Positions 29,541 to 57,635 of a DNA stretch of 64,000 nt are shown in pieces. The notes under the pieces were generated by a model. That model worked only from the letters and a program-made list of their open reading frames with translations, searched no databases and was not told the DNA's origin. Within the stretch, counting starts at the first letter, position 1, and each line of letters begins with the position of its first letter. Location: NCBI RefSeq assembly GCF_056712565.1, contig NZ_CM160072.1. The stretch is one strand, 5' to 3'. The position numbers and the translations under genes are program-made.

Positions 29541-29609
29541 TTTGTCTTTAAAACAATAGGGTATATTGTTTTAAGGTGGATGATTAAAGCATCTGCCAGC
29601 CATAAAAAA

Positions 29610-29632
29610 GAAGCCTCCGTTATGGAGGCTTC
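29610..29632. terminator. bidirectional terminator between convergent ssb and yjcB
   Basis: GAAGCCTCC-GTTAT-GGAGGCTTC preceded by an A-run (a U-run on the minus strand). Confidence 0.6.
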
Positions 29633-29638
29633 TACATA

Positions 29639-32346: not shown

Positions 32347-32811
32347 ATGGAAAAGAAATTACCCCGCATTAAAGCGCTGCTAACCCCCGGCGAAGTGGCG
32401 AAACGCAGCGGTGTGGCGGTATCGGCGCTGCATTTCTATGAAAGCAAAGGGTTGATTACCAGTATCCGTAATAGCGGCAATCAGCGGCGATATAAACGTG
32501 ATGTGTTGCGATATGTCGCAATTATCAAAATTGCTCAGCGTATTGGCATTCCGCTCGCAACCATTCGTGAAGCGTTTGGCGTGTTGCCAGAAGGGCATAC
32601 GTTAAGTGCGAAAGAGTGGAAACAGCTTTCGTCCCAATGGCGAGAAGAGTTGGATCGGCGCATTCATACCTTAGTGGCGCTGCGTGACGAACTGGATGGA
32701 TGTATTGGTTGTGGCTGCCTTTCGCGCAGTGATTGCCCGTTGCGTAACCCGGGCGACCGATTAGGAGAAGAAGGTACCGGCGCACGCTTACTGGAAGATG
32801 AACAAAACTAA
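32347..32811 (+). CDS. soxR: redox-sensing MerR-family regulator SoxR
   Basis: 154 aa; [24 protein letters not shown]; [2Fe-2S] cysteine cluster [12 protein letters not shown]. Confidence 0.95.
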
Positions 32812-32840
32812 AGCGCCACAAGGGCGCTTTAGTTTGTTTT
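32810..32840 (+). terminator. soxR terminator stem-loop
   Basis: AAAGCGCC-ACAAG-GGCGCTTT followed by AGTTTGTTTT. Confidence 0.55.
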
Positions 32841-36514: not shown

Positions 36515-36538
36515 GGTTGGCGGGCGAGCCCGCCAACC
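36515..36538. terminator. bidirectional stem-loop between yjcE and the convergent LysR-type gene
   Basis: GGTTGGCGGG-CGAG-CCCGCCAACC, perfect 10-bp stem. Confidence 0.55.
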
Positions 36539-51295: not shown

Positions 51296-51369
51296 TTGAA
51301 GATTGCCGGGGGGATATCCACCCGGCAATGTGTGGATGCCTGACTGAGTAATAGCCTGATGTAGCGTGA

Positions 51370-52242: not shown

Positions 52243-52947
52243 TTAATCCATCCGATGTTCCCCCTTTTCCATGGCGTCGCGATCAAAAAATCGCTGAATT
52301 TTTCCCTCGGACATCAATGCCGCTCGATCAGACATATGCGCGATGACATCGGCATCGTGACTGACCAGCAGATATGTCATTTGGTGTTCCAGCTTAAGTT
52401 GATTCAACAAATTAAGGATTTCCGCTTGTACCGACATATCCAACGCCGAGGTGGGTTCATCCAGCAGAAGAAGTTGTGGTCGTAACAACAGGGCGCGAGC
52501 AATAACCACACGTTGCCGTTGACCACCGGAAAGCTGGTGTGGGTAGCGACGAGCGGCGTCGAAAGGCAAGCCAACCTGTTCCAGTGCAGTCTGGACGCGT
52601 TTTTCTATTTCTCTTTCGCCACGAATTTTGAGTGGTTCAGCCAGCGTTCGCCACAGAGTATGATTGGGATGCAACGAGGCATAGGGATCCTGAAACACCA
52701 TTTGCACATTGCGGCGGAGATCGCCTTGAAAACGCATTCCTGGTTTGATGGTGTGCCCAAACAGTGACACCTGACCGTGCCAGTCGCGCTGTAATCCAGC
52801 AATTACGCGCAAAATCGTGGATTTTCCGCAGCTTGATTCGCCAATTAAACTAAATGTCTCTCCGGCATTAACCGAAAAACTGGCGGCAGAAACTGCGGTT
52901 TTCTCAGCAAAAGTCACCTGTAAGTGATTAATTTCAACAATCGTCAT
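52243..52947 (-). CDS. ABC transporter ATP-binding protein (short, NikE-type)
   Basis: 234 aa; Walker A GESSCGKST; signature LSGGQRQR; Walker B LLLLDEPTSALD; no C-terminal oligopeptide-transporter extension. Confidence 0.85.
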   Translation of the reverse strand: MTIVEINHLQVTFAEKTAVSAASFSVNAGETFSLIGESSCGKSTILRVIAGLQRDWHGQVSLFGHTIKPGMRFQGDLRRNVQMVFQDPYASLHPNHTLWRTLAEPLKIRGEREIEKRVQTALEQVGLPFDAARRYPHQLSGGQRQRVVIARALLLRPQLLLLDEPTSALDMSVQAEILNLLNQLKLEHQMTYLLVSHDADVIAHMSDRAALMSEGKIQRFFDRDAMEKGEHRMD

Positions 52948-53770
52948 GGTATTTCTCCGGCGTCATTGCCGTCCTGTCCAGCGTCGGCAGCATCTGCCCG
53001 TAAGTTTGTGCATTTGGGCGGCAAGTCCACAGTGTGCGCGTGTAAGGATGCGTTGCTGTAGGTAGCGCAGCAGCGTGCATTTCATCCACCTTATTTCCCT
53101 GATACATCACCAGCACCCGATGGCAAAATTGGGCAACTAATGGCAGGTCGTGACTGATCAGCAACATTGCCATCTGACGTTGTTCACACTGGGTAACCAG
53201 CAGTTCCAGAATCTGATTACGCAGGCGCACATCCAGTGCTGATGTTGGCTCATCGGCAATCAATACCCGGGGATCGTTGATGAGCGCAATTGCAATCATC
53301 ACTCGCTGCCCCATGCCGCCAGAAAGTTCACGAGGATAGCTTTGCAGTACTCGCGTATTGAGGCCGACAGCCTGAATTGCGGTGTTTATTTTCTCTTCTT
53401 TCTCGCGGCGGTTCAGACGTTGATGGAGCGTAAGCGCCTCTTCCAGTTGCGCTTTTACTGTCTTTACTGGATTAAGCGCGTAACGCGGATCTTGCAATAC
53501 CATCGCGATATCGTTACCGCGCAACTGTTGCCATCCACGCGCGTTAAGGGTGAGTGCATCACGCCCCAGAATGTTAAGTGTGTCCGCGGTTACTACACCC
53601 GGTTTACGCACCAGCCCCATCAGGGCGCGGGCGGTCATGGACTTACCTGAACCCGACTCACCGACCAGCGCCAGACGTTCATTGCCTAATGTAAAACTGA
53701 CATTGTTGACGACCCGGGACTCCGGATAATCGACGCAGAGATTGTTGATACTAAGACGTGAGTCAGTCAT
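52934..53770 (-). CDS. ABC transporter ATP-binding protein (short, NikD-type)
   Basis: ORF-track ORF 52934-53830 (TTG) trimmed to ATG at 53770 (MTDSRLSINNLCVDY...); Walker A GESGSGKS; signature LSGGMGQR. Confidence 0.8.
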   Translation of the reverse strand: MTDSRLSINNLCVDYPESRVVNNVSFTLGNERLALVGESGSGKSMTARALMGLVRKPGVVTADTLNILGRDALTLNARGWQQLRGNDIAMVLQDPRYALNPVKTVKAQLEEALTLHQRLNRREKEEKINTAIQAVGLNTRVLQSYPRELSGGMGQRVMIAIALINDPRVLIADEPTSALDVRLRNQILELLVTQCEQRQMAMLLISHDLPLVAQFCHRVLVMYQGNKVDEMHAAALPTATHPYTRTLWTCRPNAQTYGQMLPTLDRTAMTPEKYHDDC

Positions 53771-54596
53771 GTTGAGGCTCCAGAACATCGCGCAAGCCAT
53801 CACCCAGCAGATTAAAGGCCAGACTGGCAATTAAGATAATTGCGCCGGGAGCGGCGGCAATCCACCATTGATCAAAAATGACCTGCATACCGTCGGCGAT
53901 CATGGCTCCCCATTCCGCCATTGGCGGGCGAGCACCAAGCCCAAGAAAACCCAGGCCAGCAGCCGCCAGAATGATACCCGCTAAATCCAGTGCCAGACGG
54001 ACAATGGCAGATGGCAGGCACAATGGTAAAATATGACCAGCCAGCAGACGCCTGCCGCGGATGCCCATCATTTCTGCGGCGGCAAGATAATCACTGTGTC
54101 GCAGACGTTGGATCTCACTCCGTGCCTGACGCGCATAAGCAGGCCAGGTGGTTAATGCCAGGGCCAGTGCGCCGTTAACCAGCCCCGGCCCCAGCATGGC
54201 AACAAAAGCAAAAGCCAGAATTAAACGCGGCATTGACATTACTACGTCAGTAAAACGCATCAGCACGCGTTCCAGCCAGCCGCCGTAGTACCCGGCTAAA
54301 ATGCCAATCAGCAGACCGACCGGGAGTGTAATGATTGTCACCAATGCCACCAGCCCCAGTGCCGGGCGGCTGCCGTAGATTAAACGTGAAAGTAGGTCTC
54401 GTCCGTAACTGTCAGTGCCGAGCCAGTGCTGACGACTCGGTGCTTGTAACCGCGCCGCCGCATCCTGCCAGTTAGGATCGTGAGGTGCCAGCCACGGCGC
54501 GAAGAGCGCAATTAGCATTAATAACAGGATAATTATCAACCCGCAAAACGCGGCGGGTGAATGGCGTAAACGGCGTAAAAAGAGAAACATCGGCAT
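53763..54596 (-). CDS. ABC transporter permease (NikC/DppC-type)
   Basis: 277 aa; six predicted TM helices; BPD-transporter region around AFAFVAMLGPGLVNGALALALT. Confidence 0.85.
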   Translation of the reverse strand: MPMFLFLRRLRHSPAAFCGLIIILLLMLIALFAPWLAPHDPNWQDAAARLQAPSRQHWLGTDSYGRDLLSRLIYGSRPALGLVALVTIITLPVGLLIGILAGYYGGWLERVLMRFTDVVMSMPRLILAFAFVAMLGPGLVNGALALALTTWPAYARQARSEIQRLRHSDYLAAAEMMGIRGRRLLAGHILPLCLPSAIVRLALDLAGIILAAAGLGFLGLGARPPMAEWGAMIADGMQVIFDQWWIAAAPGAIILIASLAFNLLGDGLRDVLEPQHD

Positions 54597-55645
54597 CAGC
54601 GTAACCTCGGATCGGTCAGCCGGACCAGCAGGTCGGTTAAGTTATTTATCAACACAAAGCAGACGCCAATCAGCAGCGTTCCTCCCATGATTGCTGTGGT
54701 ATCACCCGCGAAGAGCGCTGTAGTGAGGTAGCGCCCAATACCTGGCCATGAAAAGACGGTTTCTGTCAGTACCGCGCCTTCCAGCATTGATGTATAGGCG
54801 AGGGCGATAACGGTGAGCAAGGTGCCGCGAATGTTGGGTAAAACATGACGTAGCAAAATTGTCATCTCGCTGGCCCCTTTGGCGCGCGCCAGCAGAATAT
54901 ATTCTTTATTCATTTCGCCAAGACAGGCGGAACGAGTCAGGCGCGTAATACTGGCGAGCGAGAAGTACGCCAGTAATAAAACCGGAAGTATCAAATGGTT
55001 GATTGCATTGGTAAATGCCTCGCGATCGCCAGAAAGCCACGTATCAATCAGCGCAAATCCGCTGCGGGGTTCTATGGTGAATTGATAAATATCATCCAGC
55101 CTGCCCGGCCCGGCACTCCATTGCAGTCTGGCGTAGAACAGCGCCAGCATCAGCAGACCAAGCCAAAAAACAGGGACGGAATTTCCCAGTAGAGTTAATG
55201 TTCGCACGGTGAAATCCAGCGGAGAACCGACATAACGGGCGCAAAGTACACCCGCAATGACGCCGACAACAGCACCGACAATAAGCGCCAACGTTGCCAG
55301 TTCAATGGTCGCCGGGAATACTGATAGCAAGTCCTGGAGTACCGGTTGCCCGGTGGAGCTGGCGATGCCCAGATCGCCGTGTGCCAGATTCATCAGGTAA
55401 TGCCAGAACTGGACGGCTAACGGCTGATCCAATCCTAACTGGTGGCGTACCTGATCATAGGTGGACTGGCTGGCGTGATCGCCAACGATTTGTAGTACGC
55501 GATCGACCGGTGAGAGAGCCGAAAGCGCAAAGGTAATCAGCAGCAGGCCGAGTAGCGTCAGAGCAACGGTAAACAGCCCTTGCAACAGCGCGAGCAGAGG
55601 GCGCTTGCCTCGCCATCTCGCGCGAGTGGAAAAAACGACAGACAT
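54596..55645 (-). CDS. ABC transporter permease (NikB/DppB-type)
   Basis: ORF-track ORF 54596-55738 trimmed to ATG at 55645 (MSVVFSTRARWRGKRPLLALL...) because the intergenic stem-loop occupies the extension; start is uncertain. Confidence 0.75.
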   Translation of the reverse strand: MSVVFSTRARWRGKRPLLALLQGLFTVALTLLGLLLITFALSALSPVDRVLQIVGDHASQSTYDQVRHQLGLDQPLAVQFWHYLMNLAHGDLGIASSTGQPVLQDLLSVFPATIELATLALIVGAVVGVIAGVLCARYVGSPLDFTVRTLTLLGNSVPVFWLGLLMLALFYARLQWSAGPGRLDDIYQFTIEPRSGFALIDTWLSGDREAFTNAINHLILPVLLLAYFSLASITRLTRSACLGEMNKEYILLARAKGASEMTILLRHVLPNIRGTLLTVIALAYTSMLEGAVLTETVFSWPGIGRYLTTALFAGDTTAIMGGTLLIGVCFVLINNLTDLLVRLTDPRLR

Positions 55646-55691
55646 GATCTTTCCATACAGTGATAAATCAGCGGCTGGCCTGCAATACAGG

Positions 55692-55725
55692 CCAGCCCTG
55701 GTACCGCGCCCGGTAACAGGGCTGG
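55692..55725 (-). other. intra-operon stem-loop between the binding-protein gene and the first permease gene
   Basis: CCAGCCCTG-(16 nt)-CAGGGCTGG, 9-bp stem, read directly. Confidence 0.5.
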
Positions 55726-55744
55726 ACGCGAGTTGCATACAGGG

Positions 55745-57313
55745 TTATTTGGTTACCTGATCAAACCAGACCATATCGGCATTCAACCCTTGTTGATACC
55801 CCTGCACATTATCACGCATGACAATTTGCGTTTTGCCTTGATCAATAAAGACATACGGGGAACTACGTTGTAGTTCTTGTTGCATTTTCTTATACAAATC
55901 AAGACGTTTAGTGCTATCAGGTTCAGCGATGGCCGCCAGCGTTTCTTTGTTCAGTTCCGGGATTTTCCAGCCGTTTAACCCGGCAACGGTGCTGGATTTG
56001 CCATCGTTATAGGCGAAAGAGCTGGCGTTGGAATGTGCGTCAAAATAATCAGGCAACCACATACGAATGGCCCCCTGATGCTGGTGGGCGCGAACGCGAG
56101 AGTAGACCTGACTCCCTGCGGCTGGCAGCAAATCAACTTTTACACCGCCCTGAGCAAAGCTGGCCTGAATTGACTGCGCGATGGTAATAAATGGCGGTTT
56201 ATTTTCGACATCAAGCGTGAAGTGCGGGTCTTTGATTCCGGCTTTAGCGAGGATCTCTTTTGCTTTGGCTGGATTAAAGGTAAACGGTGTTTCTTCCAGT
56301 GCTCCAGGAAAGCCCACGGGCAGGAAACTTTGATGGGTAAAATATTGTCCTTTTAAGAGATTTTTGGTGATGCCGTCGTAATCGACCAACCAGCGAGCGG
56401 CCTCCCAGAACGCAGGATTACTCATCAGCGGGTTATCCTTGTTACCGGTATTGAAGGCCAGGTAGTTCTGTTCGGCGGAGGCAATGCTCATCACTTTTAC
56501 GCCAGGTTTACCCTGTAATGCATCGATTTGATCGGCTCCCAGATCACGAGCCATATCAGCATCACCTTGTTGGATCAGCAGGCGACGCGTTGCCGGATCG
56601 GGAACATTTTTGATGATGACGTTTTTCAGTTTCGGGGCGCCGGTTGGTGAGCTGGCGTTGGCTTCCATCACGATGGCCTGATGCGGTTGGTAAGTACGCA
56701 TTTTAAACGCGCCGCTGCCAGCGGAATGCATCTTCAGCCATTCATTACCAAAGTCGTTATTTTTGGCGTTTGGCGCAACCAGCTTCTCGTCAACAATTGA
56801 GGCGATTGGTGTGGAGAGAATATTCAGTGCCAGCGCCGGGCTGACGTCGGCACTCCATTGCACCTGGACGGTATGGTCATCGATTTTCTTCAACTGGCTG
56901 GCGATATTTTCCGGCTGCCATCCCAGCACATTGAGAATAAACGCACCGGATTTATTCAGTGTGACAGCCCGGACATAAGAGTAAATCACATCTTCCGGGC
57001 GTACCGGATTACCAGAGGCAAATTTCGCATCGCTTTTCAGTTTTATGGTTAGCGTTTTGGCTGCGGGGTCAGCCTGCCAACTTTCCGCCAGAATCGGAGT
57101 GATTTTCGTCGGATCATTACGGTCCGGTTGTACTACGCGTTGATACAGACTTGGTACAGTCTGAATACTTGAGAGTTCATTAGCTTCTGCCGGGTCCAGA
57201 CTCACAATATCATCCAGTCCCTGGGCTACAACCAACGTATTAGGCGGTGTAGCGGCAACGGTTGTGGCGGAAATTGTGCTTAAAACCAGTAAAGGTAATA
57301 GTTTTTTAATCAT
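55745..57313 (-). CDS. ABC transporter periplasmic substrate-binding protein, family 5 (NikA/DppA/OppA-like)
   Basis: 522 aa; signal peptide MIKKLLPLLVLSTISATTVAA; size typical of cluster C SBPs. Confidence 0.85.
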   Translation of the reverse strand: MIKKLLPLLVLSTISATTVAATPPNTLVVAQGLDDIVSLDPAEANELSSIQTVPSLYQRVVQPDRNDPTKITPILAESWQADPAAKTLTIKLKSDAKFASGNPVRPEDVIYSYVRAVTLNKSGAFILNVLGWQPENIASQLKKIDDHTVQVQWSADVSPALALNILSTPIASIVDEKLVAPNAKNNDFGNEWLKMHSAGSGAFKMRTYQPHQAIVMEANASSPTGAPKLKNVIIKNVPDPATRRLLIQQGDADMARDLGADQIDALQGKPGVKVMSIASAEQNYLAFNTGNKDNPLMSNPAFWEAARWLVDYDGITKNLLKGQYFTHQSFLPVGFPGALEETPFTFNPAKAKEILAKAGIKDPHFTLDVENKPPFITIAQSIQASFAQGGVKVDLLPAAGSQVYSRVRAHQHQGAIRMWLPDYFDAHSNASSFAYNDGKSSTVAGLNGWKIPELNKETLAAIAEPDSTKRLDLYKKMQQELQRSSPYVFIDQGKTQIVMRDNVQGYQQGLNADMVWFDQVTK

Positions 57314-57601
57314 ATGCTTCCCAATCCCTGAAATTACTTTGAGGTTATTAATATGCTATCAGACGGGGTTTCGCTGCATTAATCGCGCCAGAATATCCCG
57401 TTAATAGAACGAGTTAAACGGTCGATGATTTCTCACCTTACCGAAATTTTGTTTATCAAATGTAAAGTATTATTACGTTAGGCCGCGATGAGAATTGAGT
57501 AAAGATAATTCTCATTTGCAATCGTGACTGGAATAGAAGAACAACCGAGAAGACGTCGCTAATAACCAGGATGGGCTGGTTTGACTGCGCAGGTATGTAT
57601 A

Positions 57602-57635
57602 AAAAAATCCGGAAACAGAGAGTCGTTTCCGGATT
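57602..57635 (-). terminator. rho-independent terminator of fdhF
   Basis: ATCCGGAAAC-(8 nt)-GTTTCCGGAT with a 7-A run on the plus strand (U-tract on the minus-strand transcript), 53 nt after the fdhF stop. Confidence 0.7.

Follow-up and report, generated by a model that had tools for sequence, protein, structure and literature searches.

A GC-rich hairpin block between the binding-protein gene and the first permease gene of a peptide/nickel-type ABC transporter operon in Escherichia coli

The window analysed here, a 64,000-nucleotide stretch of E. coli DNA (contig NZ_CM160072.1, assembly GCF_056712565.1), carries a whole ABC transporter operon which, together with its relevant neighbours, lies on the minus strand. 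The ORF list and the PGAP annotation give the minus-strand gene order as fdhF, the substrate-binding protein (SBP) gene, two permease genes, two ATPase genes and yjcO. The SBP gene (55745..57313, 522 aa, SBP_bac_5) is the first gene of the operon and is present both in the ORF list and in the PGAP annotation of ATCC 11775. Its product matches Pfam PF00496 (E=1e-68) and is of the Dpp/Opp/Nik type, while its matches to the NCBIfam NikA, DppA and GsiB models all fall below the equivalog cut-offs. The transporter is assigned to the Dpp/Opp/Nik group (peptide/nickel-type), with no NCBIfam equivalog passing above its own cut-off. The first permease gene (54596..55645, 349 aa, start at 55645) is followed by the second (53763-54596; ORF list and PGAP). 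The first ATPase gene (52934-53830) begins with TTG at 53830 in the ORF list, for a product of 298 aa; the PGAP version is shorter, starting at about 53770 and overlapping the end of the second permease gene by a few nucleotides.

The five-gene operon (52243-57313), situated between fdhF and yjcO, occurs in only 1043 of 5426 complete E. coli genomes and is absent from K-12; two matches are on records labelled plasmid. The 501-nt region around the spacer described below displays 100% identity to ATCC 11775 and was likewise found in 1043/5426 genomes. A literature search with the RefSeq protein accessions of the operon found no papers. Between fdhF and the SBP gene, 3' of the former and 5' of the latter, lies a strong terminator-like minus-strand hairpin of 12 pairs followed by TTTTTAT (57606-57635), suggesting that the operon probably has its own promoter somewhere in 57314-57600.

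The intercistronic spacer (55646..55744, minus strand) separates the SBP stop codon (55745-55747) from the permease ATG at 55645. Its length of 99 nt, and the fact that it links the SBP and first permease genes of a single operon, agree with a previous description of this locus, made from the letters and the ORF list (hereafter the sequence-only reading). The spacer holds a cluster of hairpins, all within 55669-55731, and a Shine-Dalgarno-like GGAAAG (55649..55654, minus strand) stands 5' of the permease ATG. A scan of the minus strand of the spacer found no promoter-like site, and an internal promoter for the permease genes was rejected on these grounds. Scanning 55300-56100 against Rfam (E up to 10) returned no family, and the ORF list shows no evident leader ORF within the 99 nt.

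The ORF list places the permease start further upstream, at 55738, and the sequence-only reading had preferred 55645, counting the hairpin as an argument against the longer form. The operon was recovered in 80 other Enterobacterales species, with a measurable spacer in 77 (78 loci including the window), and an alignment of these orthologues, together with the PGAP annotation, bears out the shorter form. Orthologue N-termini of the form MS[VAD]... align to the ATG at 55645, and Shine-Dalgarno-like sequences in the orthologues (ACGGAA, AAGAG or CAGGA) are spaced from the start much like GGAAAG in the window. An upstream in-frame start is absent in 56/78 loci, and in many an in-frame stop occurs within a few codons. 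Every member of the permease cluster that was read in the public protein collection has 349 aa, and the DppB model alignment begins at residue 21 of the 349-aa permease. The start at 55738 was rejected: it has no Shine-Dalgarno-like sequence and exists in E. coli and E. albertii alone, and at this place the orthologues show either in-frame stops or no start codon. Its frame is open only because the spacer happens to lack stops in these two species. These comparisons firmly support 55645 as the true permease start; the longer form is thus dismissed as had been argued, but through the homologue alignment, the hairpin itself saying little about it.

The sequence-only reading had pointed to a 9-bp inverted repeat in the spacer, and this was recovered exactly where it had been placed, with CCAGCCCTG at 55692-55700 and CAGGGCTGG at 55717-55725 of the plus strand. 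The exact 9-bp pattern occurs once in the window, against 0.00 times in shuffled sequences. The repeat is longer than first noted, with 15-nt arms (55692-55706 and 55711-55725) that are 93% complementary (one mismatch) around a 4-nt loop. Flanking symmetry had also been noted: TGCAA (55681-55685) and TTGCA (55733-55737) are indeed present and complementary, but the left TGCAA sits within the loop and stem of another hairpin, H2 (below). Read on the minus strand, the repeat forms hairpin H1 (55692..55725), with 9 + 5 bp and a predicted energy of -26.8 kcal/mol, which makes it the strongest single hairpin of the spacer when taken alone. It has no U-tail. Counting perfect inverted repeats of at least 9 bp with loops of 3-20 nt, and scoring each arm-length/loop combination separately, the window holds 32 entries compared with 4.5 +/- 3.1 in first-order Markov simulations. 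About 0.007 such repeats would be expected per 99 nt; the spacer has two, overlapping each other, and is therefore far from chance.

Two further hairpins, absent from the sequence-only reading, overlap H1; all three are read on the minus strand, in the mRNA sense. H2 (55673..55697) is GGCUGGCCUGU-AUU-GCAGGCCAGCC, with 11 pairs (10 Watson-Crick and a closing U-G; 8 G-C), a 3-nt loop and a predicted energy of -21.7 to -23.3 kcal/mol, and it can be extended to 55669-55700 with one bulge. It has 6 nt (55692-55697) in common with H1, and it ranks first among the terminator-like matches of the region in the terminator scan. The AU-rich, single-stranded segment 3' of H2 (GCUGAUUUAUCACUGUAU, 55655..55672, minus strand) provides a weak U-tail. 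The tail, GCUGAUUUAU, reaches the scan threshold of 5 T in 8, scoring -2.04 for the core stem and -2.97 for the extended stem, compared with -4.92 for the tail of the fdhF terminator. This segment also contains GA|UUU, a match to the RNase E motif RN|WUU as quoted in PMC5927463, and is a candidate cleavage site only. H0 (55704..55731), in which UCGCGUCCAG pairs with CCGGGCGCGG around an 8-nt loop, starts 14 nt past the SBP stop codon and competes for the 5' arm of H1. It is weak in E. coli (-12.4 kcal/mol), where the window allele forms 9/10 of its pairs; E. albertii-type alleles form 10/10. GGAAAG and the permease AUG lie free of the pairing of H0, H1 and H2.

In silico folding, which had been proposed as a check, indicated a stable structured spacer and favoured H0+H2 over H1. 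A 111-nt stretch has a minimum free energy (MFE) of -44.1 kcal/mol (z = -3.27 against dinucleotide shuffles), and H0+H2, which together reach -35.7 kcal/mol, make up the MFE fold of the 131-nt context. H1 is mutually exclusive with full H2, through 55692-55697, and with full H0, so that one of two exclusive pairings is terminator-like. For the window allele the mean pair probabilities are 0.34 (H1), 0.44 (H0) and 0.86 (H2). Across alleles that of H2 ranges over 0.86-0.99, while H0 has 0.85 in the major allele and rises to 0.97-0.98 in those of E. albertii type; for H1 in the full spacer the mean is 0.0 in alleles other than the window's. When growing prefixes of the transcript were folded, H1 was the MFE structure only for transcripts whose end had passed its 3' arm but had not yet completed H2. 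The two E. coli alleles both favoured it at ends between alignment columns 69 and 84, after which H0+H2 took over. On these predictions H1 is best seen as a transient or alternative pairing within a larger structured block, specific to E. coli alleles and not part of the conserved core.

The alleles of the spacer distinguish these hairpins further. At position 55719 the window has G on the plus strand (C in the mRNA), whereas the majority of E. coli have T (A in the mRNA). In the alignment the majority base disrupts pair 7 of the 9-bp stem of H1, at a cost of 6.6 kcal/mol, and falls in the loop of H0. Exact-allele counts, read from identity bands over an 86-nt query, gave 875 records for the major allele and 151 for the window allele among 1044 E. 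coli records, so the perfect H1 stem is a minority form (151/1044). A third allele, found in E. coli 14EC007 and E. albertii, carries nine or ten substitutions in H0/H1 which abolish H1 and leave a perfect 10-bp H0. H2 is identical in all four alleles compared. The 55 nt from H2 to the permease start contain 1 difference from E. albertii, compared with 17% at third codon positions of the flanking genes (P about 5e-4), a conservation measured on two diverged lineages only, E. coli and E. albertii. In the 28 nt of H0 there are 9 substitutions between the two with pairing kept, one pair being altered on both sides (GC to UG) and three on one side. Covariation was assessed on four alleles, a sample that cannot separate H0 from H1: paired cells amount to 97.6% for H0+H2 and 89.3% for H1, neither of them above the shuffle controls (87 and 81 of 500), and each structure shows one pair changed on both sides. 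The repeat singled out by the sequence-only reading is not, then, a conserved element, being mismatched in 875/1044 records and lost in E. albertii-type alleles; as far as these alleles tell, the conserved, terminator-like element of the spacer is H2.

E. coli 14EC007 (NZ_CP024131.1, L002) has an SBP gene, spacer and permease gene that are all E. albertii-like. Its SBP shows the same 98 differences from the window as that of E. albertii NBRC 107761, which suggests that the locus has been transferred between species. The last ATPase gene of this strain is annotated as frameshifted.

The possibility that the block belongs to a dispersed repeat family was considered. A blastn search (word size 11, E up to 10) of 5426 E. 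coli genomes with the 86-nt query placed matches at this locus only, the median carrier having one. With a single copy in E. coli the block is not of a REP/MITE family, and a dispersed-repeat identity (REP, MITE or BIME) was rejected. No GTAG/CTAC tag was seen in the E. coli block.

The same junction was then compared across the orthologous operons. The SBP-permease spacers vary in length between 11 and 526 nt, with a median of 84, and their sequences are unrelated between genera; even so, most hold a strong hairpin. The energy of the best hairpin (in windows of up to 80 nt) has a median of -27.6 kcal/mol in spacers against -18.2 and -22.7 kcal/mol in controls, and is a modest discriminator, since GC-rich coding sequence also yields long imperfect folds. 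It was replaced by the length of the longest perfect stem, with means of 7.6 bp in spacers and 4.9 bp in length-matched coding tiles, and by a hairpin-plus-T-tail criterion. With the latter, which asks for -15 kcal/mol or stronger and for 5 or more T in 8 nt after the hairpin, 30/72 junctions (window included) scored positive compared with 6/359 length-matched coding tiles, an enrichment of about 25-fold. Stable intercistronic hairpins are thus strongly enriched here in orthologues, in line with the sequence-only reading. Junctions resembling classical terminators occur in Proteus, Kluyvera, Kosakonia and Mangrovibacter. Serratia orthologues, however, have an 11-nt gap without a hairpin, and several Yersinia have weak hairpins only; the Serratia case implies that the feature, although common, is dispensable as judged from these genomes.

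What fills the spacers differs from genus to genus. In Enterobacter, Lelliottia and Raoultella we find inverted palindrome pairs, GCCGGGTGGCGC...CCCGGCCTAC, which we take to be REP-like, and other spacers carry what are presumably repeats of the CCCTCTCCC/GGGAGAGGG type. In Enterobacter, Lelliottia, Raoultella and relatives (L014, L016, L019, L025, L036, L044, L056 and L076), REP-like inverted pairs (GCCGGGTGGCGCTGCGCTTACCCGGCCTAC...) fill the spacers and fold with energies as low as -50 to -66 kcal/mol. As the 3' arm of this element ends in GGC-ATG, a spurious ATG arises 15 nt upstream of what is likely the real permease start. In Yersinia alsatica (L065) and Y. rohdei (L067) the spacer has grown to 181 and 128 nt, respectively, through an element ending in TTGCAGG...CCTGCAA, which we assume to be ERIC-like; other Yersinia spacers measure 41-58 nt. 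The 526-nt spacer of Kosakonia oryzendophytica (L049 2405-2799) holds 6.9 tandem copies of a 57-nt palindrome-containing unit (TCCCCTCACCCTAACCCTCTTCCCCATGGGGAGAGGG..., 93% matches). Many orthologous hairpins resemble mobile repeats (REP-like, 57-nt tandem, ERIC-like), and may be tolerated in a permissive spacer rather than selected.

Our preferred reading, held with moderate confidence, is that the GC-rich block at the 3' end of the SBP cistron (H0 or H1, then H2) serves as an exonuclease barrier and/or a leaky terminator, uncoupling the SBP gene from the four membrane and ATPase genes. From the anatomy, predicted energetics, conservation pattern and orthologue enrichment given above, we infer the following outcome for the transcripts. 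The full-length operon mRNA would be cut endonucleolytically in the AU-rich stretch 3' of H2, or further downstream; 3'-to-5' exonucleases would then chew back and halt at H2. The permease/ATPase part would decay, and what is left would be a stable mRNA for the SBP only, still translatable. H2 with its weak AUUUAU tail probably also ends a minority of transcripts as a leaky intrinsic terminator. The U-tail of H2 is weak (-2.0 to -3.0 versus -4.9 for fdhF), so termination may be negligible. Both routes would lead to SBP in excess over the permeases, mainly by way of the exonuclease barrier. The general mechanism invoked by the sequence-only reading, excess SBP transcript via an intercistronic hairpin, is documented for other ABC operons, and that reading is partly borne out: the kind of element was right, but the hairpin it singled out was the wrong one. 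The block is an unannotated instance of an ordinary, well-known kind of element, most likely allowing more binding protein than membrane subunits to be made.

The hisJ-hisQ junction resembles malE-malF, and both bear on this reading. As in malE-malF, the SBP gene comes first and stable palindromic hairpins follow directly after its stop codon, before the permeases; by analogy, 3' exonucleases would be blocked and SBP mRNA and protein would exceed the membrane subunits. Unlike the mal and his elements, which are REP/BIME copies of a dispersed family, the E. coli block here is single-copy. The stabilising REP between malE and malF of the E. coli maltose operon goes back to Newbury et al. 1987, as cited in PMC5927463. 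According to that study, malEFG and four other E. coli ABC operons show differential decay in favour of the substrate-binding gene, which in E. coli ABC operons is invariably the segment that is stabilised, guarded by 3' structures (PMC5927463). Concept and position are the same in those five operons as here. Many of the structures described in PMC5927463, however, are inside coding sequence and were defined by term-seq 3' ends and half-lives, whereas the spacer block here is known from sequence and folding.

A second precedent is the leaky Rho-independent terminator between gltI and gltJ, which releases a monocistronic gltI mRNA and the small RNA SroC (PMC4474525). There, too, a hairpin separates the SBP gene of an ABC operon from its first permease gene, the downstream genes depend on read-through, and the layout of H2 is similarly terminator-like. 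The U-tail of H2 is much weaker than that of the gltI-gltJ terminator, and no sign of an sRNA product or of Hfq binding was seen for it. In Vibrio cholerae, discoordinate expression of oppA and oppBCDF involves OppZ, a 3'-UTR sRNA which acts in trans, preventing translation of oppB and setting off Rho termination, and Opp operons require an excess of OppA (PMC7398697). The transporter here is of the same Opp/Dpp type, and that system has the same goal of SBP excess with the oppA-oppB spacer as the control point; unlike it, nothing comparable to OppZ was found here.

Of the alternatives, the one that survives best is that the block is a neutral leftover, a decayed or unique palindromic insertion tolerated in the spacer with no selected effect on expression. 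This would suit the orthologous spacers of 11 to 526 nt with their unrelated and apparently mobile palindromic repeats, the ability of Serratia to manage without a hairpin, and the E. coli block itself, whose 5' part evolves fast (9 differences within 28 nt). We consider it possible but unlikely, as H2 and the sequence downstream of it have changed far less than synonymous sites (P about 5e-4), E. coli has a single copy of the element, and terminator-like hairpins are about 25-fold more frequent at this junction than in coding controls.

REP/BIME elements act as transcription attenuators, and the present block likewise places palindromes a few nucleotides from a stop codon inside an operon; unlike them, the E. 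coli block belongs to no repeat family. A translational role, in which a hairpin near the SBP stop stalls terminating ribosomes and lowers SBP, or in which the block sets permease initiation, appears improbable. H0 does start only 14 nt past the stop codon, and ribosome stalling, which is reported for REPs within about 15 nt of stop codons, is cited in PMC12306157. On the other side, H0 is weak in E. coli (-12.4 kcal/mol), GGAAAG and the AUG are outside all three hairpins, and a lowering of SBP would be contrary to the usual stoichiometry of these transporters.

The competition between the hairpins raises the question of regulation. With H1 mutually exclusive with H0 and H2, with the nascent-transcript MFE being H1 until H2 is complete in both E. 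coli alleles, and with the 55719 variant lowering H1 stability by 6.6 kcal/mol, H1 might act as an anti-terminator against H2 (and H0), forming a regulated attenuator or allele-dependent switch in which folding kinetics, a ribosome at the SBP stop or position 55719 tunes read-through. We regard such an attenuator as very improbable: E. albertii-type alleles lack a competing H1, so the alternative pairing is not a conserved one; the block has neither an Rfam match nor a leader peptide nor a recognisable ligand-sensing domain; the terminator tail is weak; and covariation on four alleles cannot separate H0 from H1. A specific version, rated as rather improbable, would have the three hairpins form a kinetic switch differing by E. 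coli lineage, G at 55719 trapping the nascent RNA in H1, delaying H2 and raising permease read-through, while T-at-55719 and E. albertii-type alleles go directly to H0+H2. If this were true, one spacer SNP would tune transporter stoichiometry between B2 sublineages.

It is highly improbable that the SBP mRNA gives rise to an SroC-like 3'-UTR sRNA with targets in trans and H2 as its terminator. SroC, released by the leaky gltI-gltJ terminator, offers a precedent (PMC4474525), and E. coli and E. albertii agree closely in H2 and the sequence around it. Nevertheless, the U-tail is poor for Hfq binding, the Rfam scan matched no family, no candidate seed or target was identified, and the sequence directly upstream of H2 is the fastest-evolving part of the spacer. 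Scarcely credible, finally, is a DNA-level role for the perfect 10+5+10 palindrome of H2 as an operator or dimeric-protein binding site: although invariant in four alleles, it lies inside the operon on a spacer whose minus strand has no promoter-like site rather than at a promoter, its GC-rich arms of 10-11 bp around a 3-5-nt centre are typical of an RNA hairpin, and orthologues have unrelated palindromes at the same junction.

Beyond annotation, where it fixes the permease start at 55645 and points to H2 in place of the repeat first singled out as the conserved element, the finding matters little. It is a further case of a rule known for long, by which RNA hairpins follow the binding-protein gene in ABC importer operons. 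The most useful by-product is the junction comparison, in which, across more than 70 species, the same place is filled with unrelated hairpins (unique palindromes, REP-like pairs, a 57-nt tandem array, ERIC-like elements). As a clean natural data set it lends itself to the question of whether such hairpins have been selected or are just tolerated.

Elsewhere in the window there are about 17 more perfect inverted repeats with short loops and stems of 9 bp or longer, most of which are probably terminators; among them are those at 32805-32835 (13-bp stem), 36515-36538, 29548-29633 and 51302-51329.
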